Source: a candidate division CPR3 bacterium GWF2_35_18 (GTDB lineage Bacteria > Patescibacteriota > CPR3 > GWF2-35-18). From it: a DNA stretch of 64,000 bases. Positions within the stretch are counted from its first letter, which is position 1. Each line of letters opens with the position of its first letter. The notes under the pieces are model-generated. The model ran no database searches. It saw only the letters and a program-made list of their open reading frames with translations, and had not been told where the DNA came from. The translations under genes and the position numbers were made by a program. Where the stretch lies: the NCBI GenBank assembly GCA_001771135.1, contig MESW01000003.1, positions 72,719 through 136,718 on the forward strand. The letters are read 5' to 3'. Positions 2,525 through 38,549 of this stretch are shown piece after piece.

Positions 2525-4612
2525 CTATTCAATTTTGATCTTTACGTCAACTACTTTCGTAAAATCTTGACCAATAATTAAGGGATTCAAGTCTAATTCT
2601 GAAATCTGAGGAAAATCGATTACTAATTGTTGAATTTTTATTAGAATATCCTTGATAGCAGAAACATCGTAGCTTTTACCTCTTAACCCTTGTAATATTT
2701 TATTTATTTTAGTTTCAGTAATCATCTTGTCTATTGAGATTTTATCGGTGGGGATTATTCGAAATGCAACATCCTTATAAACTTCAGTATAGATTCCTCC
2801 TGATCCAAACATTAGTAGATGTCCGAAATTTGGGTCTTTTTTTACGCCAATAATAATTTCTAGTCCTTCTGGAAGCATTTCCTGGATTAAAACCCCTTCA
2901 ATATATTTTTCGAGAACATATTTTCTGGCCTTTTTAACCAAATCATCAAAGTTTTTAAGTAATTCTTTCTCATTCTTTACATTTAAAATAACTCCACTGT
3001 AATCAGTTTTATGAATCAGTTTTGATGAGGATAGCTTCATTACAACAGGATATTTTAGAAGTTCAAGGTAATTTTTGGCTGTTTGTTTATTTTTGGCAAC
3101 ATATACTTGTGCAGTCGGAACATCATATAAATTGAGAATTTTAAAAGCTTCCGCATCCTTTAAATATTCATTCTGCTTATGTCTAAAAATTTCCTCAACT
3201 TTCAGTTTGTGATGTATCGGAATAGCTGTAAATTGATAAAATTTATTTCTTCGAGCATTTTGAACCTTCCACTTCTCATATTTTATGAGTTTTGAAAGCG
3301 CTTTAATTGCCTCTGAAGGATATTTAAACTGAGCGACTTTGTTCTTTTGTAAGATATCAATACCTTTTTCAACGTTAACACCGCCAATAAAGGAAGTGAG
3401 AATTAGTTTTTTCTTCTGCTTGGCATATTTTACAATCACGTTAGCAGTTTTTTTGATCTCAGTCATAAACTGAGGAGTCAGAAGGACTAGAATTGTATCG
3501 ATATTCTTATCGTTAACTAGGTTATGTAACGCCCATTCATAACGATCCGAAAGAGCATCTCCAATTACATCTAAAGGATCTCTAATGTTGATAGTTGAAG
3601 GTAAATTTTCACCTAAATTCTTTATCGTTACTTGCGAAAATTTTGCCAATTGTAGCTGTTGTTTTATCAAACTTTCGGTTGCAATGACCGCTGGACCTCC
3701 AGCATTTGTGATAATAGCAATCCGATCACCAAAAGGCACGGGGAAGTTATTAAAAATCAACATCAGATTGAAGAATTCTTGGATCGAATCAACATGAATC
3801 AGTCCATTCTGTTCAAATCCAGTATTGATTATTTTCTGATCTTGAGCCAGTGAACCGGTGTGTGATGAAATTGCTTTTTTCCCTTCCGCAGTTTCACCTG
3901 GTTTTAGCACTATTATGGGTTTTTCATATCCTACTTCACGAGCTTTTTGTAAGAAATGCTTACCTGATCGAACATCTTCAAGATACGCAAAGATACTTTT
4001 TAGTTTTTTATCGGAAGCCCAAATATCAAGAAAATCAGATTCGTTAAGATCGAGTTTATTACCTAAACTTACAAAGTAAGAAAAACCCAAATTAACCTCT
4101 TCGGCCATATCGAGAATAGAAGTTGCAATGGCTCCAGACTGACTCATAAAAGCCACGTTACCTTTGTTAGGAAGGTTCGCAGCAAAGGTAGCATTTAGGT
4201 TTTGGAGAGTATTTATAAAACCCAAACAGTTTGGTCCTAAAATTCGGAATTTATATTCACCTTTTAATCTTAAGATATCGTTTTCCAGATCTAAACCCTT
4301 TTTCCCCTGTTCTCTGAATCCAGCGCTGATAATGACAATATTCCGGATACCTTTTTGTCCGCATTCTTCCATAATTTTAGCGACAAATGAGGCTGGAACA
4401 ACAATAACAGCCAAATCAATTTTATCTTCAACGGATAAGACAGAAGGATAGCAACGAAGATGAAATATTTTCTTTGCCTTTGGATTGATAGGGTACACGC
4501 GACCTTGAAACCCATAATCAATAATGTTTCGAACAATGGCCGAACCAAGCTTTTTTATATTTCTTGATGCACCAATGACTGCGATCGACTGGGGGCTTAG
4601 AAAATCATTCAT
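2525..4612 (-). CDS. ADP-forming acetyl-CoA synthetase (acetate--CoA ligase, ADP-forming), fused alpha and beta domains
   Basis: N-terminal CoA-binding motif (SIAVIGASRNIKKLGSAI), succinyl-CoA-synthetase-like flavodoxin domains and a C-terminal ATP-grasp region. About 700 aa, typical of fused Acd. Confidence 0.8.
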   Translation of the reverse strand: MNDFLSPQSIAVIGASRNIKKLGSAIVRNIIDYGFQGRVYPINPKAKKIFHLRCYPSVLSVEDKIDLAVIVVPASFVAKIMEECGQKGIRNIVIISAGFREQGKKGLDLENDILRLKGEYKFRILGPNCLGFINTLQNLNATFAANLPNKGNVAFMSQSGAIATSILDMAEEVNLGFSYFVSLGNKLDLNESDFLDIWASDKKLKSIFAYLEDVRSGKHFLQKAREVGYEKPIIVLKPGETAEGKKAISSHTGSLAQDQKIINTGFEQNGLIHVDSIQEFFNLMLIFNNFPVPFGDRIAIITNAGGPAVIATESLIKQQLQLAKFSQVTIKNLGENLPSTINIRDPLDVIGDALSDRYEWALHNLVNDKNIDTILVLLTPQFMTEIKKTANVIVKYAKQKKKLILTSFIGGVNVEKGIDILQKNKVAQFKYPSEAIKALSKLIKYEKWKVQNARRNKFYQFTAIPIHHKLKVEEIFRHKQNEYLKDAEAFKILNLYDVPTAQVYVAKNKQTAKNYLELLKYPVVMKLSSSKLIHKTDYSGVILNVKNEKELLKNFDDLVKKARKYVLEKYIEGVLIQEMLPEGLEIIIGVKKDPNFGHLLMFGSGGIYTEVYKDVAFRIIPTDKISIDKMITETKINKILQGLRGKSYDVSAIKDILIKIQQLVIDFPQISELDLNPLIIGQDFTKVVDVKIKIE

Positions 4613-4618
4613 ATATGT

Positions 4619-5902
4619 TTACTTATGAATAACTTGAGCGATTATTTCCTTAGTATTTACAACATTCAATTTATTGAATAATGTCGTAAATTTTTCTACC
4701 AACTTATTCCTGATCTCCGTTTGAATTTCCGGAGACAAATCCCAACAATCTTTTTTGAAAGGACCAATAGCCTTTTTTCTAGTTTTATACAGAAACTGTT
4801 CCTCAGTTTGACCATCTTTTTTCTCATCAGCACAGTTTGCTTTCACATATTCATGAACTTTATCTTTGAGTTCTTTGGGGAAAGCAGGATGATCATAAGT
4901 CATATTTTGAAATTCAGTTGCAAGATGGACTTCAAGAGTTCCTTTCTTGGGAAAATTATCAAAAGCTTCTTCTGGTAGTGTTGAAGCTCCATGTTGAACA
5001 GCACCACCTAGCCCATATGTTTGACACTCTTTAGACATTATTCCTAAAGTGTCAAAATCAATTTTTACTTTGGCTAGAGTGCCATCTGGTAAAACAACGC
5101 CACCATGGGTTGTTCCAGTTTGAACGCTCACCTTTGATAACCCCACGAAGTTTCCTTTTGCCTGTAATAAAGCTTGATAACCTTCCAAATAAGCTTGTAG
5201 CTCTTCGGGAGAGCTATTTTTACCTCCGACTTCACCTATTTCTCCACCAACTGATACCGTGGGACCCAAATTAAGCTCTTTTTCAAGATTACGAATGTAA
5301 ACTGTTAAATCAGCCGTTTGTTCGTAATTATTCTTTTGTTGTTCTGAAATCGTGGTTTTTGTAAGATCTACCAAAGTAGAGGCATCGATGTCAATATTAT
5401 AAAAATGCGCCTCCAAAGATTCTCGAATTAGATCTTTAATCGCTTGAGCCTCCTTCTGGGGTTCTACTAAAAATTTTTTGAGCTTGAATTGATAGTGATC
5501 GCCTTGAAGAAATATCGGACCGACAAAGTTTTCTTTAATCGCTGCCGCCAAAATTGAGGTCGTAAATTCTGCCGGACGTTGGTCTGTATAACCGATTTCA
5601 GATCTAGCAATTTCGAATATTAATGCTCCAACTTTCAAATTATTTGCAGCTTGAAAGATAGCACGTGCCATATTATAGCTCATCATCCGAACATTGATAG
5701 CCGGTACTGAGAAACCTTCAAATTGATGTTTTCCTCTCGCCATATAAAAATCATGAATAGAAGCAGGATAAATTCCCATGGATAATGCCGTCTCATAAAT
5801 CGACTTACGTGCATTTTCTTTTTCTGCATCTACTCCAAAAGTCGCGGTATAAATTAATGTATCAATATTTTCTGACATAGAAACTCCTTTTTTTCCTGTC
5901 AT
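4619..5902 (-). CDS. GatZ/KbaZ-family class II (tagatose/fructose) bisphosphate aldolase-like protein
   Basis: 427 aa. Motifs ALIFEIARSEIGYTDQRPAEF and FLQGDHYQF parallel GatZ [24 protein letters not shown] and ILGGDHLGP. An HGAS motif and a C-terminal TIM-barrel-like region are present. RBS AAGGAG upstream. Confidence 0.5.
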   Translation of the reverse strand: MTGKKGVSMSENIDTLIYTATFGVDAEKENARKSIYETALSMGIYPASIHDFYMARGKHQFEGFSVPAINVRMMSYNMARAIFQAANNLKVGALIFEIARSEIGYTDQRPAEFTTSILAAAIKENFVGPIFLQGDHYQFKLKKFLVEPQKEAQAIKDLIRESLEAHFYNIDIDASTLVDLTKTTISEQQKNNYEQTADLTVYIRNLEKELNLGPTVSVGGEIGEVGGKNSSPEELQAYLEGYQALLQAKGNFVGLSKVSVQTGTTHGGVVLPDGTLAKVKIDFDTLGIMSKECQTYGLGGAVQHGASTLPEEAFDNFPKKGTLEVHLATEFQNMTYDHPAFPKELKDKVHEYVKANCADEKKDGQTEEQFLYKTRKKAIGPFKKDCWDLSPEIQTEIRNKLVEKFTTLFNKLNVVNTKEIIAQVIHK

Positions 5903-5978
5903 TCCGGACTTGATCCGGAATCTATTATTTTAAATAATTATTACTGGATCCCGTATCAAGTATGGGATAACTTTAATG

Positions 5979-6872
5979 TCATTTTAATTTTTCGATTGCT
6001 TCAGAAACTAAATTTTTGGATCCAATATAAACTGGGGTACGATGATCCACTTTATTGGGAACTATTTCTAAAGTTCTTTTCACTCCATCTGAAGCTGCTC
6101 CACCCGCAGCCTCAGCGATAAAAGACATTGGTCCGACTTCAAAAAGAACTCTTAACTTACCTTCTGGTTTTTCGATTAACGCTGGATAGCTAAAGATTCC
6201 GCCATACGTTAAAATTTGGTGAAAATCTGGAACAAAAGAACCGCTGTAACGAAGCTTCAAACCTGCTTCTTCATATGATTTAATCAGCTGTTTATGTTTT
6301 TCCGTCCATTTTGTGTATAATCCACCCGGAGAATAGAGTTTCCCGTCTTCAGATAGTTTCATATCTTCTTTTACGAGGTCAAAAACACCTTCATCATTAA
6401 GAACAAATTGAGAAACTCCGGATTGATCAGCAAATACCATGAGAGTAAGTGGTCCAAGCAAAATATAAAAAGCAGATTTGATATTGGATAACCCACTCAT
6501 AATTTCCCCGTTTTCATAAATGGAAACAATAATCCCTACCGCAAGATTGGTTGGAATGAGAGAAGAACCATCTAAAGGATCAATTGTCACTCCAAAATGT
6601 CCCCGCGTACTTTCCATATGAATCACATCAGCTTCTTCTTCACTGCCGGCCTGTTTTACAAGACCAGATGATTTGAAAGCAGTAAGGAGTATTTCGTTAG
6701 CTCTTTTATCCAGTTTGATTTGTTCTTCGCCATAGAGATTATAAGTACCAGCTTTTTTGTCTCCACCTAAAAATTCCGTCTTTATAGGCTTTATTTGATC
6801 TACTATAACTTGAATCATGTCAATAAAATCTTTAGATTGATTATTACCTTGAAGATAGGAAGAAAGTGTCAT
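5979..6872 (-). CDS. fbp: Fructose-1,6-bisphosphatase class 1
   Basis: DPLDGSS metal-binding motif. GKLRVLFEVGPMSFIAEAAGGAASDG matches the FBPase class 1 signature. Confidence 0.75.
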   Translation of the reverse strand: MTLSSYLQGNNQSKDFIDMIQVIVDQIKPIKTEFLGGDKKAGTYNLYGEEQIKLDKRANEILLTAFKSSGLVKQAGSEEEADVIHMESTRGHFGVTIDPLDGSSLIPTNLAVGIIVSIYENGEIMSGLSNIKSAFYILLGPLTLMVFADQSGVSQFVLNDEGVFDLVKEDMKLSEDGKLYSPGGLYTKWTEKHKQLIKSYEEAGLKLRYSGSFVPDFHQILTYGGIFSYPALIEKPEGKLRVLFEVGPMSFIAEAAGGAASDGVKRTLEIVPNKVDHRTPVYIGSKNLVSEAIEKLK

Positions 6873-6977
6873 TGTTGACTCCTTGTGTAAATGCTTGATT
6901 GAAAATAATAAATACTATATATTTTATTGTAGAAGGTTTAAAAACTTTGTGCAATAGAAAAATGAAAGGAGTTATAT

Positions 6978-7238
6978 ATGGCAGGATTAAAACTAGGAGA
7001 AGCACCAACCAAAACAATTGCAGATGCCTTTTGGAACACTGAAACAACTGAAGAAAAATTTGATCCAGAAAAAAAAGCAGCCCAAGGATTATTAGGACTA
7101 CGTACAATTAATTGTAAAGGAAATCCCGAAAAATTAGCTGAATTTGATGAGATGGTTAATCAACAAAGGTCTCAAGGAAAATCGTTTACAGAAATTTATG
7201 AAGAAGTTGAAGCAGCAACATTCTCCGAATTAGTATAA
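6978..7238 (+). CDS. Small hypothetical protein (86 aa), hydrophilic
   Basis: Strong SD (GAAAGGAG) 6 nt upstream of the ATG. It is a lone plus-strand gene between minus-strand genes. The competing minus-strand ORF 6844-7107 lacks an RBS. Confidence 0.45.
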   Translation: MAGLKLGEAPTKTIADAFWNTETTEEKFDPEKKAAQGLLGLRTINCKGNPEKLAEFDEMVNQQRSQGKSFTEIYEEVEAATFSELV

Positions 7239-7270
7239 ATAGTACTAACTTTACATTTATTATTTAATAC

Positions 7271-8911
7271 TTATCTAATTAGTATTCTTCCCGTCATTTC
7301 CTGCGGTATTGGTAATCCCATCACTTTTAGAATCGTAGGAGCTACGTCTCCCAATATTCCTGGTTGTAATGTCTTCAAACCAGTGGGAACAGGACCAATG
7401 TAGATAAAAGGGACTGGAAAGTTGGAATGTTCTGTGTCGGGTTCATTCAGTTCACGATTAAACATCTCCTCGACATTCCCATGATCAGCTGTAACTATCA
7501 TCACTCCTCCCATGCCTTTTACAACTGGTGCTAATTTCCCCAAACAGATATCAATAGCTTCACAAGCTTTAATTCCGGCTGCAATTTTACCAGTATGACC
7601 TACCATATCAGGATTAGCAAAATTGATTACAATAAAATCATAAATATTTTGTTTAATCTTTTGTACCAAAACATCCGTTAATTCGAAACTCGACATTTCA
7701 GGTTTCAAATCATATGTAGGAATAGATGGAGAGGGAATAATAATACGGTCTTCACCTGGAAAGGGATCTTCACGTAAACCATTAAAATAATAGGTAACAA
7801 AACGTTCTTTTTCGGTCTCAGAGATGTGCAGCTGTCTTTTTTGATGATCAGAAAGAACTTCAGATATTGTCTGTTTAATTGAACGACGAGGAAAAGCAAT
7901 TGCCGAAACAGGTAAACCTTCTTCATATTGAGTCATCGTCACAAAAAAAAGATTTTGGATGAAGTTAGGTCTACTGAAAGTGGTAATTTTATGAATTTGG
8001 ACTCTTTTTTTCAAAGGAAGTTCTTCTTTAAAAATATCTTTTCGAACTTCCACGTATTCAAAATTAGGTAACACAAATGCTTTTGTTAGCTGTCTCGGGC
8101 GATCGACTCGATGATTGAAGAAAATTACCGCATCGTTATCGTGAATAAGACCAATGGGATTATTATTTTCGTCTACGATGTTTATCGGTTTAATAAATTC
8201 ATCAGTTATCCCTTGTTCGTAAGAGTGAATGAGCGCCTTTTGAGCATCTTTTTCTTTGATTCCGGTTCCTTGAGTTAAACAGTTATAACATACTTCTGTT
8301 CGATCCCAACGATTATCACGATCCATAGCATAGTAACGTCCAGTAATGGTCGCGATCTTTCCCACTCCAGTTTCTTTCATTCGATTTTCAACCTCAACAA
8401 CAAAGGTAATGCCTTCATGTGGAGGGTCATCACGACCATCAGTAAATACATGTAGGAAAACTCGTTTTACATCGTACTCTTTAGCTAACCATAACAAACT
8501 ATTAAGATGATCGGTAGAGGCATGTACAGCAGACGGTTGAATAATTCCGACCAAGTGAAGAGCTGAATCATTACGATTGACGTGTTCTACAGCTTTTACA
8601 AAAGCTTCATTACGGATGAAAGTACCGTCAATAATTGATTGGTTTATTCGTTGCAAATCTTGATAAACAACTCTTCCAGCACCAATATTTAAGTGTCCCA
8701 CTTGAGAACTTCCATCTTGAGCATCAGGTAGTCCTACGGATTTTCCCGAAGCTTGAAGATGTGTATGTGGGTTATTTAACCACAATTTATGATAGTTAGG
8801 CATTGAAGCCAAAAGAGTCGCATCACTTTCAAGATCTTTTTGGGGAGCAATACCAAATCCGTCTAATATCACAAGCACAACTGGTTTTGGAGCACTAACA
8901 GAATTATCCAT
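7271..8911 (-). CDS. gpmI: 2,3-bisphosphoglycerate-independent phosphoglycerate mutase
   Basis: N-terminal VVLVILDGFG, a metalloenzyme core and a C-terminal VTADHGN motif. About 546 aa. Confidence 0.9.
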   Translation of the reverse strand: MDNSVSAPKPVVLVILDGFGIAPQKDLESDATLLASMPNYHKLWLNNPHTHLQASGKSVGLPDAQDGSSQVGHLNIGAGRVVYQDLQRINQSIIDGTFIRNEAFVKAVEHVNRNDSALHLVGIIQPSAVHASTDHLNSLLWLAKEYDVKRVFLHVFTDGRDDPPHEGITFVVEVENRMKETGVGKIATITGRYYAMDRDNRWDRTEVCYNCLTQGTGIKEKDAQKALIHSYEQGITDEFIKPINIVDENNNPIGLIHDNDAVIFFNHRVDRPRQLTKAFVLPNFEYVEVRKDIFKEELPLKKRVQIHKITTFSRPNFIQNLFFVTMTQYEEGLPVSAIAFPRRSIKQTISEVLSDHQKRQLHISETEKERFVTYYFNGLREDPFPGEDRIIIPSPSIPTYDLKPEMSSFELTDVLVQKIKQNIYDFIVINFANPDMVGHTGKIAAGIKACEAIDICLGKLAPVVKGMGGVMIVTADHGNVEEMFNRELNEPDTEHSNFPVPFIYIGPVPTGLKTLQPGILGDVAPTILKVMGLPIPQEMTGRILIR

Positions 8912-13296: not shown

Positions 13297-16200
13297 TCAT
13301 CGACGTAATTTGGTAATAAATATTACCGTACTAATCAATCCAGTTAGTAAAAAAATAATTGTACCTCCTAAAAAACCAGTGTCTGGAAGTTGAAAGATAC
13401 TGCTCCGGACGAAGATACTAAAGTTAATGGTATCTTTATTACCAGCTTGATCAGTAGATATAATAGTGACTTCATGAAGTCCAAGAGGAATATTAATTTC
13501 AGGAGTATAACTCCAATTACCCGTATCATCAATTGTTGTATTTCCAATAATAGGTTCTGAATTGATGGTAATATTAACGATCGCTTCTTTTTCTCCTGTC
13601 CCTTCAAAAACTGGTTTACTGTTATTTAACTCCCACTGGGTTAAGTCTTTATTAAAGGTAACTCCTCCTAATTTAACTAAGTTGATAGTGGTTGTAGTAT
13701 CGAGAATGATACTGGCGCTGTAAATCAAAGATTCATTCCCCGCACCATCACGATATTTGATATAAATTGTCTTAATACCATCTCCTTCTGATAATGTCCA
13801 TACTTTTGTTTTAGAGTAAGACTCCCACTCTACTCCAATAAAATTAGGATTTTCAGAGATAATCATTTCCACAACTTCGGTTAAATCATCCGTTCCCGGA
13901 AGAATTAAGGTAATTGTTTTTTCGTTAGTATATTCGTTATTACTGGGACTCACAATTTCAATTGGTCCTTCAGGAGATTTAGTATCCAAAATAATAGTAT
14001 CACTATAGATAGTTGATTCATTACCGGCCACATCTTTGTACTTGGCATAAACTGTTTTTGTACCATTATTACTAGAGAGAGTAAACGTTTTAGAGGTGTC
14101 ATATGATTCCCAACTTGATCCAGTAAAAGATTCATTTTCAGAAAGAATCATCTGACTTATTCCGGAAGGATTATCGATAGCCGATAAAGTAAGAATAACT
14201 TCTCTACTATTAGTGTTTTCAGCTCCTTCATTGATAGTTATACTTCCTGTCGGTAAAGTATCGTCTACATTAAAATTTGTAGATTGATACAAGATTTCAG
14301 GTAAATACACTTCATTTTGATCAATGGAACGAACGGTTAATGTATGAGTTCCTTCACTTAAAGAACTCGGGGAAGTACAAGAATAATTTTCTGATATTTC
14401 ATCAAAGGCACCATCAGAAGCAGTACAATCAAACCATATACCCCCATCAATCTTTCCCTGGATATTTTTTAGAAAAACAGATTGACTATTTGATTCCGCA
14501 TACGTATTTTTTGTCCAAGAGACACCATCAGATGAAGTTGCGTAAGCCAATCTCCCATTTGTCCCATCATGCCCGGTATACCACATCTTATAGATTCCAT
14601 TTTCTTTTATTAAGCTTCCAAAGTAAACGCTTCCTTTATCAATTGAATATGTATTACTTTGAGATAAAACTGGATTATTATCAGATTTAGTCCAAATAGC
14701 TCCATCCGGAGAAGTCGTATAATGAATTTGATATCTTAATCCATCATATCCGGTATACCACATTTTATAGGTTTCATTATCTTTGATTACATAACCTGAA
14801 AAAGCATGAACATCATCTGTTTCTCCAGAAGATCCCAAGGGAATAACACAACCATCCCCAATAGTCCCACTACAGTTGTTCCCAGAATTTCGAGTCCAGG
14901 TTAAACCATCATTCGAAGTTGCATAACCAATTCTCACATTACTGCCATCATGCCCAGTATACCACATTTTATATATTGTCTCGTCCTTGATCACATAAGG
15001 ATAATAAGTATGAGCATCATCCCAGTTACCGTTAACTGCTTTTGTAAAAAGACATCCATCTCCTAATGTTCCCAAGCAATTATTCCCAGAATTTCTTGTC
15101 CAAGTTATACCATCTGTAGATGTTGCATAACCGATTCGCATCGTACTTCCATCATGTCCGCTATACCACATCTTATATGTTTCCCCCTCTTTTATGACAC
15201 TGATACCATAGAGATGAAGATCATCCCAATTACCATTTGCACTTAGGTCAAAAATGCAACCATCTCCAGTTGTACTACCACAATTATTCCCATCATATTT
15301 TGTCCAATTTATACCATCTGTAGATGTTGCGTAACCGATTCGCCAGTTAGTATTATTCGATCCGGAATACCACATCTTATAGGTTGTTCCATCTTTTATT
15401 ACTGAAGGAGCATATCCCGTATGGTAGTAATCCCAATCGTAAACAGTTCCATGTTCATAATCTGCTCTACCTAGATCTAATAAAGTAGTGGTTTTGTCAA
15501 TTACCTTATCTTGGATGGGATTATTTGCTTCTCCAGATAAAGAAACGGTAGCTGTATAATATGGAGAGATAGTGTCGAGAGAAATACTAGCTTCATCATT
15601 TCCAATCTCCCAGATATCTAATTTTCCCGTGCCTCCTCCATGTCCAAGGATAGCTAAGTCCTCATACTCATCATAATCAAAGTTACCGACAATCATAGCT
15701 CTACCATAAGATAAAGAGCGCGTTAAATAATGAGGAGCAGTTATAAAAAGATCTGCGTTTTCAATAGCTTCAACTTCTCCGGACATATTTATTAAATTAT
15801 TTCCATAGTAAATATATACTCCTCCTTTAAAATCTTTATTAGTATTAAAAGTATAATATCCGTAATAATAACCCCCAACAGCCAGATCTAAATTTCCATC
15901 GTTATTCCAGTCATTAACAACAACCGACACTCCAAACATATGATACGGAATATTAGAATACAAAATAATATCCGCGTCTTCAGGATGAAGAATAGTTTGA
16001 GATAAGTAATTCGATTTTCCTAAAAATATCATTACTCCTCCTCTATAAGATACTCCATATCCACTTAATCCTATGATGATATCTTGTAAATTATCATTAT
16101 CAATATCGGCAACAATAAAATTTTGATAGCCGCCTAAATACTGATATGATGTGCTTCCTTCAATAATTAAATCCGCTTCAGAAAAAAGTTTGTTAGCAGT

Positions 16201-18300
16201 AGTTAAAGGTCCCAAAAAGATTCCTACCGAGCCAATATAGTTTTGATCATAACGATAACTAGATATGATAAGATCATCAATATTATCACTGTTTATATCG
16301 GCACTGTAATGACCTTGACCAGTGTAATAATTGGCTGTATCGCCTTTAACAGTAAAATCTGCATCAGTCCCAGCGTTTAAGTTCAAATCCCAAGCATGTT
16401 CTCCACCAAAAAAAACATATGTTTTCCCAGCATCAGTCTTTCCATCATAATCATATTTATATGCTCCCAAGGCTAAATCCGGCCAATCATCATTATTAAA
16501 ATCACTAACGGCCATAAGATCTAATCCTCCAAAACGGGAACCAGCTTGTTCAGCATCAATTACAATAGCAGCATCACTATAACTATCAATAGTTTCAAAA
16601 AAATCAGCTCTTCCCCAAAATATGTATACTCTTCCAGTTAGACTGCTTGGAGAACCCACAGCATTTACAATCAAATCATCGTAATTATCTTGATTAAGAT
16701 CACTAATAAAAATGCTATATCCAAAACGATCGTTTACTTTCTCTCCTAGAATAAAACTAGTTCTTTCAGTAGGAATTTCTGAAGATGTGCCTTGGTAAAG
16801 ATGCACCTCTCCAGTACTTGAAATGGAATAGTCTTGCCCTACTGCAAGATCAATATACCCATCGTTATTAAGATCACCTTTTTGTAAGCTGTGACCTTGA
16901 CCTGCCCCAAAAGAAGCAGCTGGATCACCAATGATACTTTGCTGTAAAAAACCATCGCTGTTTTCAGGGTAGTAATAATCAATTCCATACCGACCTAGAT
17001 AAACATCATCGTTTAAAGAAGCCGTATTTTTAGTATCAACCACAATTGTGCCGCGATTATTAGTTGAGATATAAATTAAATGATTCGTGGTATCTAAAGT
17101 CCCAAATGTTCCATAATTACTACTAATTTCAATAGAGCTTGTAATACCATAGCTTCCTTGCAGTGTATCATCACTCGGATCAACTGTTCCTTGAGTATTA
17201 ATTACAGTCATAGAAGAAACTAGGTTGTAGTGAGTAATATAAAGTAAATTACCTTCAACATATACTGACTTTACTCCTCCTGCGCTTTGTAGGGCTGGAT
17301 TTGAAGATAACAATACACCAGTAGAACTATCGGTAGTATTCCAGACTCCCGTAGTCCGATAAGCAAAAGAGGTATTATCATTTAGATTAACAACCGATAA
17401 GACTCCATCAGATGAACTTCCTTGAGAAGGTAGATATAAAAGCTTATTACCACTATCAAGCCCGATCTTTTCAATATTATTATGAGCAAGATGAGGAGTT
17501 GTCGAAGTTGAATAATTCGTTACAACAGTATCATCAGCAGGAGTCTTGGTGCCTTGAGTATTAAAAACTCTCATCCCTCCTCCCCAAGTTCCGATATACA
17601 GATAATTGTTATCAGAGTCAAAATATACTTGAGCTTGATTATTATTATGAGGAATTGCTGGAGTTGAGGTTGTTGTATAAGTAATCAAAAGTGTATCATC
17701 AGAGATCGTTACTGTTCCTTGAGTATCAATTACTGAAACTCCTCCTCCATAAGTAGATATATATAATAATTTGTTTATCGTATCCAAATAACTAGCATAA
17801 ACATTGTTATTTCCGATTGCGACGGGAGTGGAAGTTGTAGAATAAGTAGCATTTATAGTGTCATCAGTTGCAACAACTGTCCCATTGTTATCGATCACAT
17901 CTAATCCTCCAGAGGTACCAATATATATTAAATTTCCTATTTTATCGATAAACTTTATTGAATTTGAGCTTAGAGCTGGAGTTGAAGTAGTATTATAATT
18001 AATTACTATTGAATCATCTTCTAAATTATTCGTATTGTGAGTATTTATCACGTAAACACCAACATCACCAGTACCAATGTAAACAAGATTATTGGTATTA
18101 TCAATATAAGTATAGTAGCTTGAATTTGAAGAGATATAAAAAGTATATGGAGTTGCCTGCGCTAAGCTATTTGTAAAATTATTAAAAAGATAGAACTTTT
18201 GAGTAAAAGAAATTGTAAAGATTATCAGAATTATGATTATTCTTTTAAATAAATATAAGATTTTAATTTTCAGAGGCATAAAATGTTCTCTAAACTTCAT
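13297..18300 (-). CDS. Giant LPXTG-anchored cell-surface protein (1667 aa). It carries an N-terminal signal/TM, Reg_prop-like propeller repeats, FG-GAP (integrin-alpha-like) repeats, five tandem GH43/GH130-like propeller blades (YKMWY...IGYATS.DG..WT), Ig-like domains, two Big_5-like domains and a C-terminal LPDTG sorting signal.
   Basis: The repeat motifs are read from the translation. The C-terminus QLPDTGFLGG, a hydrophobic stretch and KLRR form a sortase signal. Confidence 0.75.
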   Translation of the reverse strand: MKFREHFMPLKIKILYLFKRIIIILIIFTISFTQKFYLFNNFTNSLAQATPYTFYISSNSSYYTYIDNTNNLVYIGTGDVGVYVINTHNTNNLEDDSIVINYNTTSTPALSSNSIKFIDKIGNLIYIGTSGGLDVIDNNGTVVATDDTINATYSTTSTPVAIGNNNVYASYLDTINKLLYISTYGGGVSVIDTQGTVTISDDTLLITYTTTSTPAIPHNNNQAQVYFDSDNNYLYIGTWGGGMRVFNTQGTKTPADDTVVTNYSTSTTPHLAHNNIEKIGLDSGNKLLYLPSQGSSSDGVLSVVNLNDNTSFAYRTTGVWNTTDSSTGVLLSSNPALQSAGGVKSVYVEGNLLYITHYNLVSSMTVINTQGTVDPSDDTLQGSYGITSSIEISSNYGTFGTLDTTNHLIYISTNNRGTIVVDTKNTASLNDDVYLGRYGIDYYYPENSDGFLQQSIIGDPAASFGAGQGHSLQKGDLNNDGYIDLAVGQDYSISSTGEVHLYQGTSSEIPTERTSFILGEKVNDRFGYSIFISDLNQDNYDDLIVNAVGSPSSLTGRVYIFWGRADFFETIDSYSDAAIVIDAEQAGSRFGGLDLMAVSDFNNDDWPDLALGAYKYDYDGKTDAGKTYVFFGGEHAWDLNLNAGTDADFTVKGDTANYYTGQGHYSADINSDNIDDLIISSYRYDQNYIGSVGIFLGPLTTANKLFSEADLIIEGSTSYQYLGGYQNFIVADIDNDNLQDIIIGLSGYGVSYRGGVMIFLGKSNYLSQTILHPEDADIILYSNIPYHMFGVSVVVNDWNNDGNLDLAVGGYYYGYYTFNTNKDFKGGVYIYYGNNLINMSGEVEAIENADLFITAPHYLTRSLSYGRAMIVGNFDYDEYEDLAILGHGGGTGKLDIWEIGNDEASISLDTISPYYTATVSLSGEANNPIQDKVIDKTTTLLDLGRADYEHGTVYDWDYYHTGYAPSVIKDGTTYKMWYSGSNNTNWRIGYATSTDGINWTKYDGNNCGSTTGDGCIFDLSANGNWDDLHLYGISVIKEGETYKMWYSGHDGSTMRIGYATSTDGITWTRNSGNNCLGTLGDGCLFTKAVNGNWDDAHTYYPYVIKDETIYKMWYTGHDGSNVRIGYATSNDGLTWTRNSGNNCSGTIGDGCVIPLGSSGETDDVHAFSGYVIKDNETYKMWYTGYDGLRYQIHYTTSPDGAIWTKSDNNPVLSQSNTYSIDKGSVYFGSLIKENGIYKMWYTGHDGTNGRLAYATSSDGVSWTKNTYAESNSQSVFLKNIQGKIDGGIWFDCTASDGAFDEISENYSCTSPSSLSEGTHTLTVRSIDQNEVYLPEILYQSTNFNVDDTLPTGSITINEGAENTNSREVILTLSAIDNPSGISQMILSENESFTGSSWESYDTSKTFTLSSNNGTKTVYAKYKDVAGNESTIYSDTIILDTKSPEGPIEIVSPSNNEYTNEKTITLILPGTDDLTEVVEMIISENPNFIGVEWESYSKTKVWTLSEGDGIKTIYIKYRDGAGNESLIYSASIILDTTTTINLVKLGGVTFNKDLTQWELNNSKPVFEGTGEKEAIVNITINSEPIIGNTTIDDTGNWSYTPEINIPLGLHEVTIISTDQAGNKDTINFSIFVRSSIFQLPDTGFLGGTIIFLLTGLISTVIFITKLRR
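14450..15500 (-). repeat. Five tandem in-frame coding repeats (about 180-205 bp each) encoding near-identical propeller-blade units of the giant surface protein
   Basis: A recurrent DNA motif encoding YKMWY at about 14580, 14760, 14965, 15165 and 15370. The protein repeats are about 60-70% identical. Confidence 0.6.
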
Positions 18301-33913: not shown

Positions 33914-34096
33914 TTACCATCCTGCTGGTTTTTCTGGTTCCATCAGTCTATTTGCTTCGGCTTCACCATTTACTTCCTCACCTCGAACTTTATCACCTCC
34001 AGCTTTTGTTGAAGCTGGTAATATAACTGGTATCAAAGCAATAACGACTACAACAGTAATCAGAAAAGATAGTATAATTTTCGTTTTTGTTTTCAT
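33914..34096 (-). CDS. Small (60 aa) membrane-anchored or secreted protein
   Basis: SD AAAGGAG 6 nt upstream of the ATG. It has an N-terminal hydrophobic helix followed by a Gly/Glu-rich tail. The competing plus-strand ORF lacks an RBS. Confidence 0.4.
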   Translation of the reverse strand: MKTKTKIILSFLITVVVVIALIPVILPASTKAGGDKVRGEEVNGEAEANRLMEPEKPAGW

Positions 34097-34170: not shown

Positions 34171-35463
34171 TTATTTTTTGATCACCAGTAGTTTATCGAT
34201 TCGATTTCCATCCATATCCACAATTTCTAGAGAAACACTTTCATCTTCATAACGATTACCGGTCTTTGGAATTTCATTCTGTTTATTCATGATTTTATTG
34301 AAAACATACCCGCCGATAGTGTTAAAATCCCCTGAGTATTCACCAGGAATGTGTTTGATGTGCAGCTGTTCTTTGAATTCATCGATAGATAAAAGCCCGT
34401 CCACAAGGAAAGAACCGTCTTTCCTTCGCACTACCTCTTGTTCCTCAAGCTCATCAATTGAAGGAACAGATCCGACAATGGCTTCAAGAATATCAGTTAA
34501 AGAAATTAGCCCTTCTACACTGCCAAATTCATCCAGGACCAGCGCGGTATGAATTCCGGATTTTTTATAGAGATCAATCACATCCAAAGCCTTCATATTT
34601 TCCGATACCAATAAAGGCTCATGCAAAATTTTTTCTAGTTCAATCTTTTCATTCACTAAATAACCAGTCAAAACGTCCTCGGCGCGAATGACTCCTTTAA
34701 CTTTATCAATCGAGCCACGACAAACCGGGTAATAGGCTAAAGGGTTCTTGATAATTTTGTCACGGATTATTTTTTCCGAATTATTTATATCAATCCAGAT
34801 AATTTCGCTACGCGGAGTCATCAAACCTTTAACTTTTTTATCACCTACTTTGAAAGTCCTCTCCACAATATCTTTTTCGGTGGGATTGAAAACGCCTGTT
34901 TTGGTGCCTTCGGAAATGAGGATCTTTATTTCATCTTCACTGATAAGCTGATTCTGATCTTTTTTGAGCTGAAATATCTGCAGAATAAGATCAGTGGACG
35001 AACTTAAAAAAGTCGCAATTGGAGAAAAAATTCTAATGATAAAATGCAGCGGAAGAGCCACAAAACGAGCAATTTGATCCGGAAAGTTGAGGGCTAATCT
35101 TTTAGGAACTAGTTCTCCCAAAACAATCGTAAAATAGGTAATGATAATCACTACAATCCATAAGGCGATAGTGCTACTGTATGGAGTTAAAAATGAAATT
35201 CGTGCTAACGATACCGCTAGGGAATCGGTGATTTCCGCACCTCCCAATACTCCGGTCAGAATTCCGATTAAAGTGATGCTGATCTGGATTGAGGAGAGAA
35301 ATTGGTTAGGAGATTTGGCCATATCTAGAACCAGCTGCGCGCTACGATCACCATCTTTGGCTCGATGCTGTAGTTTGGTGCGTCTAGCAGAAATGATCGC
35401 AATCTCTGCCATTGAAAACATGCCATTTAAAAGAATCAGGATAAAAAGTATAAAAATATTCAT
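34171..35463 (-). CDS. CNNM/TlyC-family transporter (DUF21 TM domain, CBS pair and CorC_HlyC domain)
   Basis: N-terminal four-TM DUF21, tandem CBS domains and a C-terminal CorC/HlyC transporter-associated domain. Confidence 0.8.
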   Translation of the reverse strand: MNIFILFILILLNGMFSMAEIAIISARRTKLQHRAKDGDRSAQLVLDMAKSPNQFLSSIQISITLIGILTGVLGGAEITDSLAVSLARISFLTPYSSTIALWIVVIIITYFTIVLGELVPKRLALNFPDQIARFVALPLHFIIRIFSPIATFLSSSTDLILQIFQLKKDQNQLISEDEIKILISEGTKTGVFNPTEKDIVERTFKVGDKKVKGLMTPRSEIIWIDINNSEKIIRDKIIKNPLAYYPVCRGSIDKVKGVIRAEDVLTGYLVNEKIELEKILHEPLLVSENMKALDVIDLYKKSGIHTALVLDEFGSVEGLISLTDILEAIVGSVPSIDELEEQEVVRRKDGSFLVDGLLSIDEFKEQLHIKHIPGEYSGDFNTIGGYVFNKIMNKQNEIPKTGNRYEDESVSLEIVDMDGNRIDKLLVIKK

Positions 35464-35537
35464 TATGTTTGATTATATACTCAACCTCCTTAAGTTTGCA
35501 AAAATGTTGTTAAGTATACACAAGATGATTTCAAAAG

Positions 35538-35566
35538 TAAAAAAGCCGAGGCAACTGCCTACGGCT
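35538..35566 (-). terminator. Rho-independent terminator downstream of tRNA-Glu
   Basis: On the minus strand, agccgtaggca-gt-tgcctcggct hairpin followed by TTTTTT. Confidence 0.6.
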
Positions 35567-35581
35567 ATTTTAAAAAACATT

Positions 35582-35660
35582 TGGTGACCCCGGAGGGATT
35601 CGAACCCTCGATTTTTGGGATGAAAACCCAGTGTCCTAGGCCGCTAGACGACGGGGCCAC
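35582..35660 (-). tRNA. tRNA-Glu (anticodon UUC), CCA encoded
   Basis: Manual fold. Acceptor stem GTGGCCC/GGGTCAC, T-arm GAGGG-TTCGAAT-CCCTC, anticodon loop TT-TTC-AT with U33 and A37, and a 3' CACCA end. Confidence 0.8.
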
Positions 35661-35729
35661 AAACTATTAACTAAGGACAAACGGAATTATACACGGAAAT
35701 AACTCTTATTTGCAAGACCATGTATCATT

Positions 35730-35763
35730 TTTAAACTAGCGCTTCTTTGAAAACTTCATCGAC
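35730..35763 (-). repeat. Degenerate 34-bp copy (28/34 identical) of the lon 3' terminus (encodes VDEVFKEALV*) lying immediately downstream of the GNAT gene. Its partner copy is 36217-36250.
   Basis: Direct comparison of tttaaactagcgcttctttgaaaacttcatcgac with tttacactaacgcttccttgagaacctcatcaac. Confidence 0.6.
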
Positions 35764-36210
35764 TTATTTAATCTTATATAGAACAACTCGTGGTTGATTG
35801 GGGCCATAATGATCCTTGCTAAACCCAGAAACAACAAATCCCAAGTTTTTGTACATCTTCAAAGCAATCGTATTCTTCGGATGTGTGACGATTTTGATTT
35901 TCTTTTTGTCCTTTAAGCTATCCAACATCATCTTCACTCCTGTAGTTCCATAACCATGTTTTTGATATTCGGGTAAGATTGCAATTCCGACTATTTCCGA
36001 TTCTTCATTATCAATATCTACCCACGAGTAAAATCCGATAATCGTTTTATTGAGATAAATAAACCCGGTATCTCCTGATTGTGTAAGACAAGTTTCGAAC
36101 TCTTTTTCCGTGAAGCTATTGTCAAAATCACGATTAAAACATTTCTTGTCTAATTCAACCAGTTTTGAAATGTCTTTTCTAGTGGCTCTTTTATAAGTTA
36201 ACTTGTCCAT
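35764..36210 (-). CDS. GNAT-family N-acetyltransferase
   Basis: Acetyl-CoA binding motif region GIAILPEYQKHGYGT. 148 aa. It starts 8 nt after the lon stop. Confidence 0.8.
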   Translation of the reverse strand: MDKLTYKRATRKDISKLVELDKKCFNRDFDNSFTEKEFETCLTQSGDTGFIYLNKTIIGFYSWVDIDNEESEIVGIAILPEYQKHGYGTTGVKMMLDSLKDKKKIKIVTHPKNTIALKMYKNLGFVVSGFSKDHYGPNQPRVVLYKIK

Positions 36211-36218
36211 TATTAGTT

Positions 36219-38549
36219 TTACACTAACGCTTCCTTGAGAACCTCATCAACCCGCTTCACAAAAACGAATTTGAGCTGTTTGCGGACTTCGGCTGGAACG
36301 TCTTTCTCCAGGTCTTTCTGATTATCCGCCGGCATAATGATTTTCTTTAAACCCGCACGATGAGCAGCCAGAACTTTTTCTTTCACTCCGCCGATTTCGA
36401 GCACCTTCCCACGTAGCGTAATTTCTCCAGTCATGCCGATATCTTTACGAACTTTTTTCCCGGTATATAGAGAAACGAGACTGGTTGTCATCGTTACCCC
36501 GGCTGAAGGACCGTCTTTGGGAATCGCGCCCTCCGGAACATGAATATGGAGATCATTAACTTTGAAGAGTTTAGGATCGATCTTTAGCTCTTTACTCTTT
36601 GATTTGACGTAAGAAAGAGCGGCTTGTGCGGATTCTTTCATCACATCACCCAGCTGTCCGGTAATAATAAGCCCACCTTTTCCCGGATAATAGGTCGATT
36701 CGATCGCCAGGATATCTCCACCGGCTTCAGTCCAGGCAAGTCCGGTAGCGACACCGGTTTCATCTGCTTCTTCTTTGAGCCAGGCGGAAAACTTCCGTGG
36801 ACCCAAGATCTCTTCGATTTGTTTTTCATTAACCGTAGGGCTAATTTTTTTGTTTTCTGCAATCTTCCGCGCCAATTTTCTAAGAATTGAAGATAGTTCT
36901 CTCTCAAAGTTACGCACCCCAGCTTCGCGGGTATAATTACGAATGATTCTACGTAGAGCTTTTTCCTCAATCTTGATCTTGCGTTTATTGAGTCCATGCG
37001 ACTTTAATAGTCGAGGTAAAAGATATTTTTTGGCAATATGATACTTTTCTTCCTCTGTGTAACCCGAATAACGAATCACTTCCATTCGGTCTCGCAGAGC
37101 TGGAGGAATCGTATCTAGGATATTTGCCGTTGTTATAAACATCACGTCTGAGAGATCAAATGGCACTTCTAGATAATGATCAGAAAAAGCATGATTCTGT
37201 TCAGGATCAAGAGCTTCCAGTAATGCGGAAGAGGGATCGCCACGATAATCATTACCAACCTTGTCGATTTCATCAAGCATAAAGACCGGATTGCTGCTTT
37301 TGACCTGTTGAATGCTTTGAATAATTCTTCCTGGCAAAGCGCCGACATATGTCCTTCTGTGACCGCGGATTTCAGCCTCATCTTTGATTCCACCCAAAGA
37401 CATCTTCACAAATTTGCGATTAAGGGCTTTGGCAATTGATTTTCCGATTGAAGTTTTCCCAGTACCCGGAGGACCGACAAAACAAAGAATCGAACCGCGC
37501 ATTTTTCCCACCAGTTTATTTACAGCTAAATATTCTAGAATTCTTTCTTTCACCCTTTCTAATCCATAATGATCTTCATCCAGAATCGCTTCAGCTTTTT
37601 TCAAATCAATCTGATCTTTGGTCTTTTTGCTCCAAGGCAGATCAACAATAGTTTCCAAATAAGCGCGTAAATAGGAAGACTCTGGATTCATTGAAGACAT
37701 CTTTTCAAAACGATTTAGGTCTTTGACAACCTTTTCCTTGGCTTCTTCAGGCATTTTCAAAGCACTGATTTTTTTGCGCAGAGTTTCAACCTCGTTTTCA
37801 TCTTCCTCGTCTCCCAGCTCTTTTTGAATGGTTTTCATCTGTTCGCGCAAAATCACCTCTTTTTGCATCTTGGAAAGCTCTTGATGCGCTTTACTTTCTA
37901 GTTTCTTGCCCAAACGCAACACTGAAAGCTCTTTACCCAAAATGTCGTTAATGATATCTAGCTTCACTTTGGTTTCGACCTGTTCCAAGATTTTCTGTTT
38001 ATCAATGAGCTTGAGATCAAGGCTTCCCGCAATTAGATCCGCCAAAGAATGAGTATCGTCAACAGAAAGGATATTAATCAAAGCTTCCATGGGCACGGAT
38101 TTTCCTAAAGTAACGGCTTTTTTGAACTGCGAAAGTACCGCGGCTTTGAGCGCTTCAATTTCCTGCGAATACTGGATTACTTCTTCAACATTTTCAACTT
38201 CAACTTTATAAAATGGTTTAGTTTGGGTGAATTTGTGAATTTTGACACGTTTAAGACCTTCGACAAGAATTCGGGTTTCTTTAGTTTCATTGAAAACCTG
38301 TCGGACGACGGCTAGAGTTCCCACCTGGTAAATCTGTTTATTGGTCGGATTTTCGACACTGGCATCCTGTTGAGCGGAAAAGACAATATATCCACCATGC
38401 TTTTGGGCTTCAGTCAAAGCGTTCACGGAGTAATTCCTTCCCAAAGTTAAGGGAAAAAGCACTTTCGGAAAGATAATCACATTCCGTAAAGGTATCAACG
38501 GATATTCGTTAAAATTTTTCTTTTTGAGGGAAGATAATATATCAGTCAT
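36219..38549 (-). CDS. lon: ATP-dependent protease Lon (LonA)
   Basis: LON N-domain, AAA+ Walker [10 protein letters not shown] and S16 protease [14 protein letters not shown]. 776 aa. Confidence 0.92.

Follow-up and report, generated by a model that had tools for sequence, protein, structure and literature searches.

A displaced lon gene end beside tRNA-Glu very likely records the insertion of an acetyltransferase gene in a CPR3 bacterium

The e14 prophage of Escherichia coli K-12 is integrated at icd, where the prophage supplies the 3′ terminal codons of the gene and a displaced pseudogene, icdC, lies at its other end (PMC6379469, PMC13626634). The icd and icdC copies differ mainly by synonymous or conservative changes (PMC6379469, PMC13626634). 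Here we describe a locus of like geometry in the candidate division CPR3 bacterium GWF2_35_18, on a 64,000-nt stretch of contig MESW01000003.1 (GCA_001771135.1) that we refer to as the window. In this locus, a GNAT N-acetyltransferase gene lies between lon, the gene of the ATP-dependent protease La, and a tRNA-Glu gene, and a copy of the lon 3′ end is found on each side of it. We conclude that the locus is very likely (roughly 85%) the product of an insertion that displaced the ancestral end of lon; we read it as a footprint of evolution and do not regard it as a working element. As with e14 or phage 21 at icd, the insert would sit inside the 3′ end of a protein gene, a replacement end would keep that gene functional, and the original end would be left as a short pseudogene on the far side, with mainly synonymous or conservative differences. 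The other process that we compare with this locus, homology-facilitated illegitimate recombination in natural transformation, has reportedly been described in Acinetobacter and Streptococcus pneumoniae.

Every feature of the locus, namely lon, the GNAT gene, the lon-end copy and tRNA-Glu, is on the minus strand. The open reading frame (ORF) list and Pfam show an intact lon gene (36219-38549, 776 aa; stop codon 36219-36221) with LON_substr_bdg, AAA, Lon_lid and Lon_C domains. The Lon_C match extends from residue 573 to the final residue, 776, indicating that the Lon tail is part of the folded protease domain. Repeat alignment identifies two copies of the lon end. The left, functional copy (36211-36251) is composed of the last 10 lon codons and stop (36219-36251, GTTGATGAGGTTCTCAAGGAAGCGTTAGTGTAA) and the 8-nt spacer AACTAATA that leads up to the GNAT ATG. 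The GNAT gene itself (35764-36210; 447 nt, 148 aa) is followed by the right copy (35723-35763), which consists of a 33-nt lon-end copy (35731-35763, GTCGATGAAGTTTTCAAAGAAGCGCTAGTTTAA), hereafter the remnant, that would be translated as VDEVFKEALV*, and 8 nt of spacer. The lon-end copy starts one base after the GNAT TAA, in frame with GNAT, and its own stop is 72 nt from tRNA-Glu.

The original prediction had described a 34-bp sequence, 82% identical to the end of lon, directly after the GNAT stop, and a GNAT start 8 nt after the lon stop. We found both at these positions and with this content: 28 of 34 positions are identical (27/33 in the 33-nt core), the ATG is where it was placed, and aligning the two copies shows a real similarity that is far above chance. 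The ungapped repeat extends further, to 41 nt with 33 identities (35723-35763 versus 36211-36251), and thereby takes in the 8 nt past each stop, where 6 of 8 positions match. On both strands of the window, the lon-end copy is the sole site at least 70% identical to the lon end, the runner-up matching at 21/33, and the best match in 200 first-order Markov random 64-kb sequences does not exceed 23/33. The longest identical run between the copies is 6 nt (GAAGCG); a longer core could have been eroded by later divergence. The full stretch from the lon end to the tRNA is present in ten independent assemblies (Logan, ENA, JGI, NCBI), nine of them at 100% and one (L086) at 99.6% identity, indicating that the arrangement is no assembly artefact and that there is almost no population variation at the locus.

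The way in which the two lon ends differ bears on their origin. Of the six differences (GTT/GTC, GAG/GAA, CTC/TTC, AAG/AAA, TTA/CTA and GTG/GTT), five are synonymous and the sixth changes L to F, while the stop is retained and indels are absent. Synonymous changes make up 23 of the 99 possible single substitutions in the stretch (23%), and the probability that six random substitutions would spare the stop and alter no more than one amino acid is P = 0.003-0.01, according to the assumed transition bias. Phe at the differing position also occurs in a genuine Lon tail (LSEVFKQALK in L094), and xxEVLKxAL is a widespread Lon C-terminus motif. The simplest reading of this pattern is that most of the divergence arose at a time when each sequence still served as the end of a functional lon gene, in two separate lineages, which would mean that one copy was brought in from another lon gene and that the replacement lon end is probably xenologous. 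The original prediction spoke of a segment "carrying or regenerating" a new lon end; the synonymous bias favours carrying and speaks against regenerating.

We examined the neighbourhood of lon in relatives by scanning genome contigs and metagenome contigs once each and by running one protein search with lon as the query. In four WWE3 loci (L178-L181, lon 65% identical), tRNA-Glu(UUC) follows lon on the same strand after a gap of 106 nt, and in L182 and L183 (lon 66% identical), which share the ATP-synthase-lon-tRNA-Glu synteny of the WWE3 loci, it follows on the same strand after 66 nt. Microgenomates-type loci carry tRNA-Glu(CUC) after lon, with gaps of 48, 75, 63 and 29 nt in L005, L006, L038 and L126, respectively. 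None of these ten loci has a gene between lon and tRNA-Glu, and the spacers of relatives hold TATAAT-like boxes, as does the spacer in the window. Since the 72 nt between the remnant and tRNA-Glu fall within the range of 29-106 nt seen between lon and tRNA-Glu in relatives, the remnant sits at the position expected for the ancestral lon end. The unoccupied site, lon and then directly tRNA-Glu, is therefore present in relatives, these being distant (lon at most 66% identical). This is the order that the original prediction had anticipated for related genomes, and its central claim, that the ancestral lon terminus lay next to tRNA-Glu and that a GNAT-containing segment was inserted with a new lon 3′ end, is supported by both the repeat and the synteny. 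The collections searched contain no lon at more than 66% and less than 100% identity, so a nucleotide-level comparison with an empty site is impossible.

Among 160 lon loci from the genome and metagenome scans, no relative of GNAT is found near lon except in L093, which is the same genome. Two GNAT homologues at 62% identity are located in other neighbourhoods, one between groES and DUF1801 (L091) and one beside a 2-hydroxyacid dehydrogenase gene (L092), and neither has lon-like flanks. The position of GNAT next to lon is not fixed across homologues.

These observations can be arranged into a sequence of events. In the ancestor, lon would have been followed about 70 nt on by tRNA-Glu, with its own promoter in the spacer and a shared downstream terminator. 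A segment of about 488 nt would have entered lon 33 nt before the original stop; it would have comprised a new lon ending of 10 codons plus stop, then an 8-nt spacer, and finally the GNAT ORF without a promoter. Lon would still be intact because its final 10 codons came with the incoming DNA, and the 10 codons that had originally ended the gene would have been pushed beyond GNAT, where they would survive untranslated beside the tRNA-Glu promoter. The replacement ending would stem from another, already diverged lon, the most likely donor being a related member of the Patescibacteria with GNAT after lon. As the specific mechanism we tentatively prefer homology-facilitated illegitimate recombination, in which the donor DNA would have recombined with lon homology as its left anchor, while its right end was joined illegitimately at lon codon -10. 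A related donor would explain both the synonymous divergence and the native-like composition under such homology-anchored recombination. As a whole, the insertion together with this favoured mechanism is reasonably likely to be the best explanation of the locus.

The gene content of the locus fits recombination by the host machinery, as no mobility gene is found. The segment between the repeats holds GNAT only. A Pfam scan of five ORFs (lon, GNAT, a CNNM transporter, a Mur-ligase-type protein and an unassigned 60-aa ORF) detects no recombinase, and there is none among the called neighbours, which are a HAD hydrolase, a 5-formyltetrahydrofolate (5-FTHF) cyclo-ligase and a serine hydroxymethyltransferase (SHMT). 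A site scan of the locus finds no promoter-like or terminator-like site in the intervals that separate lon from GNAT and GNAT from the remnant, so that GNAT most likely depends on read-through transcription from lon and would now be expressed in this way.

The GNAT protein matches Pfam Acetyltransf_1 with E 1.4e-14 (54.8 bits versus a cut-off of 20.7). It is RimI-like, scoring 51.1 bits against TIGR01575 and so falling below the cut-off of 86.4 for RimI (ribosomal protein S18-alanine N-acetyltransferase) equivalogs. Its best solved-structure matches are generic N-terminal acetyltransferases at E about 1e-8. By these profile and structure matches, it appears to be a generic small acetyltransferase that is nearest to RimI and N-terminal protein acetyltransferases, below the family cut-offs. 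The homologues at 62% identity have the same length and end within one residue of the GNAT stop. A variant of the same protein in P0002 has 129 aa, lacks about 19 residues (KIKIVTHPKNTIALKMYKN) and carries one substitution; it is either a population deletion allele or an assembly error. PADLOC gives no hit for GNAT, and viral contigs contain no match to GNAT or to a degenerate pattern of the repeat, so that neither a phage-borne gene nor a defence gene is indicated.

Several points weigh against the insertion as we reconstruct it. Comparing GC and codon usage of GNAT with the genome, as the original prediction proposed, reveals nothing foreign: none of GC (0.342), GC at third codon positions (GC3, 0.356) and codon usage (z -0.67) stands out from the rest of the window. 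The donor would therefore be compositionally similar, or the event old. The searches found neither a lon-GNAT arrangement that could represent a donor nor a closer relative with an empty site, and the left junction is not locatable because the nearest lon is just 66% identical. Region-by-region comparison of lon with 120 homologues detects no break in identity that would signal a mosaic, and WWE3 is among the closest relatives in most of the lon regions compared, including the last 76 residues. The argument from synonymous bias is built on just six differences, which makes for thin statistics. Finally, the right junction is suspiciously exact, lying at the GNAT stop and leaving the remnant in frame, which is a coincidence under illegitimate joining; a defined recombination site would fit such a junction better.

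We weighed this reading against other explanations of the paired lon ends. One is site-specific integration of the type of e14 or phage 21 into icd, in which the attachment site of an element, carrying a mimic of the lon 3′ end, restored lon, the host end became attR, and later deletions left GNAT alone. The geometry is that of icd and icdC around e14, the repeat spans the gene end and some spacer, and an element-borne mimic would explain the synonymous differences. We nevertheless consider this scenario unlikely: the repeats have no integrase or other element gene between them or next to them, GNAT and the repeat have no match in viral contigs, the longest shared run of 6 nt leaves no clear core, and GNAT fills the interval so completely (8 nt spare at its left end, 0 nt at its right) that two deletions would need to end exactly at the ORF boundaries. 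It is the missing recombinase and element genes, along with the need for two exact deletions, that lead us to prefer illegitimate recombination. Alternatively, the resident lon end could have been duplicated at insertion, through a long target-site duplication from a staggered break or through a template switch, so that the copies began identical and diverged in this genome. Direct repeats right at the flanks of a single inserted ORF would be expected here, the similarity past the stop (6/8) follows easily if both copies come from one locus, and the native-like composition of GNAT allows an old event. Neutral drift, however, should change the approximately 25 non-synonymous sites about as much as the synonymous ones, and we observe one change versus five, with an intact stop and no indels; if only the lon copy was constrained, at least five of six synonymous differences would arise with P ~0.03 (a hand estimate from 23/99). 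The insert also lacks terminal inverted repeats and a transposase, and known target duplications in transposition are 2-14 bp long. Duplication of the resident end is thus quite improbable.

The second copy might instead be retained for a function, either as upstream context of the tRNA-Glu promoter or as a C-terminal extension of GNAT through UAA read-through. The -35 hexamer of the putative tRNA-Glu promoter indeed follows 15 nt after the remnant, which itself continues the GNAT frame directly past the stop of that gene, and the remnant peptide is kept better than random decay predicts. Selection on promoter DNA, however, would not favour synonymous positions, it is not obvious what a 10-residue piece of the folded Lon_C domain would do on GNAT, and the GNAT homologues end at nearly the same residue as this protein. 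Bacteria are not known to use efficient UAA read-through as a programmed event. A conserved RNA structure is not seen either, and since the arrangement occurs in no relative that we found, its conservation cannot be shown. We regard a retained function as highly improbable. There is also no sign of an RNA element, as both repeat copies are unstructured (z +0.6 and -0.3) and Rfam finds only the tRNA at the locus. Similarity by chance, in favour of which one can cite the shortness of the repeat and nothing else, is effectively refuted by the gap between 27/33 and the best random match, by the uniqueness of the match in the window, and by a copy that has the orientation of lon, lies at the expected ancestral position and encodes a Lon-type tail. 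A further idea is that the 488-nt unit, made up of the GNAT ORF and a 41-nt mimic of the lon end, is a minimal cassette of one gene that has no integrase and inserts at the lon 3′ end of Patescibacteria via a defined short site. A cassette with a defined short site would explain why both junctions match ORF boundaries exactly and, if true, would constitute a gene-cassette insertion system of a new kind, found in ultra-small bacteria; we think it very unlikely. In a weaker form, the locus could preserve a rare natural case of illegitimate recombination, anchored by homology and driven by transformation, in an organism of the candidate phyla radiation (CPR).

The region downstream of the remnant contains the tRNA-Glu gene and its putative signals. 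The tRNA (35582-35658, anticodon UUC) is called by ARAGORN and matched by Rfam RF00005 (59 bits). Upstream of it lies a sigma-70-like promoter-like site, TTGCAA-18-TATAAT (35686-35715), which agrees with the consensus at 10 of 12 positions and is predicted by consensus match only. A second site with the same hexamers and spacing (35472-35501) precedes the CNNM transporter gene. Past the tRNA, an intrinsic terminator hairpin with a U-run (35538-35572; fold -17.2 kcal/mol, z -4.9 versus shuffles) probably ends the lon-GNAT-tRNA transcription unit. The unassigned 60-aa ORF (33914-34096) is located between the CNNM gene and the Mur-ligase-type (FolC-like) gene; it has a hydrophobic N-terminal segment and no Pfam match, and it is called consistently across all assemblies. 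The most atypical synonymous codon usage among 50 ORFs of the window belongs to lon (z -2.4), followed by the CNNM/CorC transporter gene (34171-35463; z -2.3). Their GC3 values are 0.39 and 0.37, respectively, against a mean of 0.28, and most ORFs between about 30.5 and 42.4 kb are elevated. This skew could reflect expression level, regional heterogeneity or old transfer.

Gene content around lon and tRNA-Glu varies in some other loci. In L007 (2534-3091), the interval between lon and tRNA-Glu(CUC) measures 483 nt and contains an 86-aa ORF for a GIY-YIG nuclease (Pfam E 1e-14), which reaches into the start of the tRNA, and no lon-end copy was found beside it. The same lon-tRNA spacer may have taken a different small insert there, with adjacency uncertain because of an N-run in the interval. 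The WWE3 loci L178-L181 (about 5520-8337) have identical lon and tRNA-Glu(UUC) and differ in the genes directly 3′ of the tRNA. These genes encode a 360-aa unknown protein, a helix-turn-helix (HTH) protein, a DUF3800 protein and HsdM in L178, NYN, DUF3800 and HsdM proteins in L179 and L180, and NYN and HsdR-like helicase proteins in L181. Such strain-variable content on the 3′ side of tRNA-Glu is typical of an integration hot spot.

We also looked for variants of the arrangement and for similar footprints elsewhere. Every contig with identical GNAT, lon and CNNM proteins was looked up, and all have the same arrangement. L086 and L084 were considered as deviant arrangements and rejected, as both are scaffolds with N-runs inside lon (L086:2167-2230; L084:2892-2969 and 3633-3655); L086 also includes unrelated filler sequence. 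As a result of these N-runs and filler, lon is miscalled or missing in the L086 and L084 records, including GCA_001771165.1. Within the window, a scan for direct repeats no shorter than 28 nt and no more than 4 kb apart finds only repeats in large repetitive ORFs and weak pairs, with no other similar footprint. The large ORFs contain diverged tandem repeats at 14506-15441 and 17165-18018, with periods of 204 nt and 165 nt and 60-77% identity, which presumably are repeated domains of surface proteins. Around the GNAT homologue of L091, the groES 3′ end (1081-1098) and a site just downstream of GNAT (1995-2012) match at 16 of 18 nt; translated on the minus strand, each gives ILE*, the differing codons being TTG/CTG and TAA/TGA. 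This match has no further extension and its geometry does not fit, so that it is probably due to chance; no similar footprint surrounds the GNAT homologue of L092.

The locus reveals no new molecular system. What it illustrates is how a streamlined CPR genome can gain a gene without harming an essential neighbour, namely when a substitute gene ending comes along with it. The donor would have been a related organism with a diverged lon, which suggests DNA exchange within Patescibacteria. Short displaced gene ends of this kind could serve as markers to locate, and roughly date, acquisitions in genomes for which close relatives are missing.

Compared with known systems, the locus falls outside the integrative-element, tRNA-island, transposon and integron families, because the defining features of each were looked for here and are not all present. 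Genomic islands at tRNA genes resemble it in that it adjoins a tRNA gene and that the gene content 3′ of the same tRNA-Glu is strain-variable in WWE3. It differs from them in that the junction lies inside lon, upstream of the tRNA and its promoter and 105 nt from tRNA-Glu, and in that no integrase is present. The 28-nt 3′ part of tRNA-Glu occurs once in the window, with up to 3 mismatches allowed, which excludes a tRNA-targeted island. Thus, of the suggestion in the original prediction that a tRNA gene acted as an integration hot spot, the adjacency holds, but the tRNA was not the target, given a junction inside lon and the lack of a partial tRNA-Glu copy. A transposon or insertion sequence is rejected, as there is no transposase, the insert ends have no inverted repeats, and a repeat of 41 nt at 80% identity is too long and too diverged. 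Integron cassettes are likewise single promoterless ORFs behind an expressed gene, and a 488-nt circle of ORF and short site is conceivable; this candidate fails because the repeat copies form no attC-like hairpin (z values as given above), no integron integrase is found among the neighbours, and the site is the lon coding end and not attI.

With homology-facilitated illegitimate recombination the locus would share a single homologous anchor (here lon), an illegitimate other end, the absence of element enzymes, and recipient sequence that may remain beside the insert. The parallel with e14 at icd extends to a 3′-end direct repeat at both insert borders, an intact target gene and an unoccupied site in relatives, and it stops at the integrase and other element genes, which are absent between the repeats. 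Whereas e14 is about 15 kb long, has its own integrase and is bordered by a 163-bp icd duplicate, the insert described here is a 447-nt ORF without a recombinase, flanked by a 33-41-nt repeat with no core longer than 6 nt. The footprint is thus of a type already known, a displaced gene end beside a gene-restoring insertion, and what sets it apart is just its minimal make-up, a lone ORF that lacks a promoter, flanked by a 33-41-nt repeat with no recombinase, and its CPR origin.

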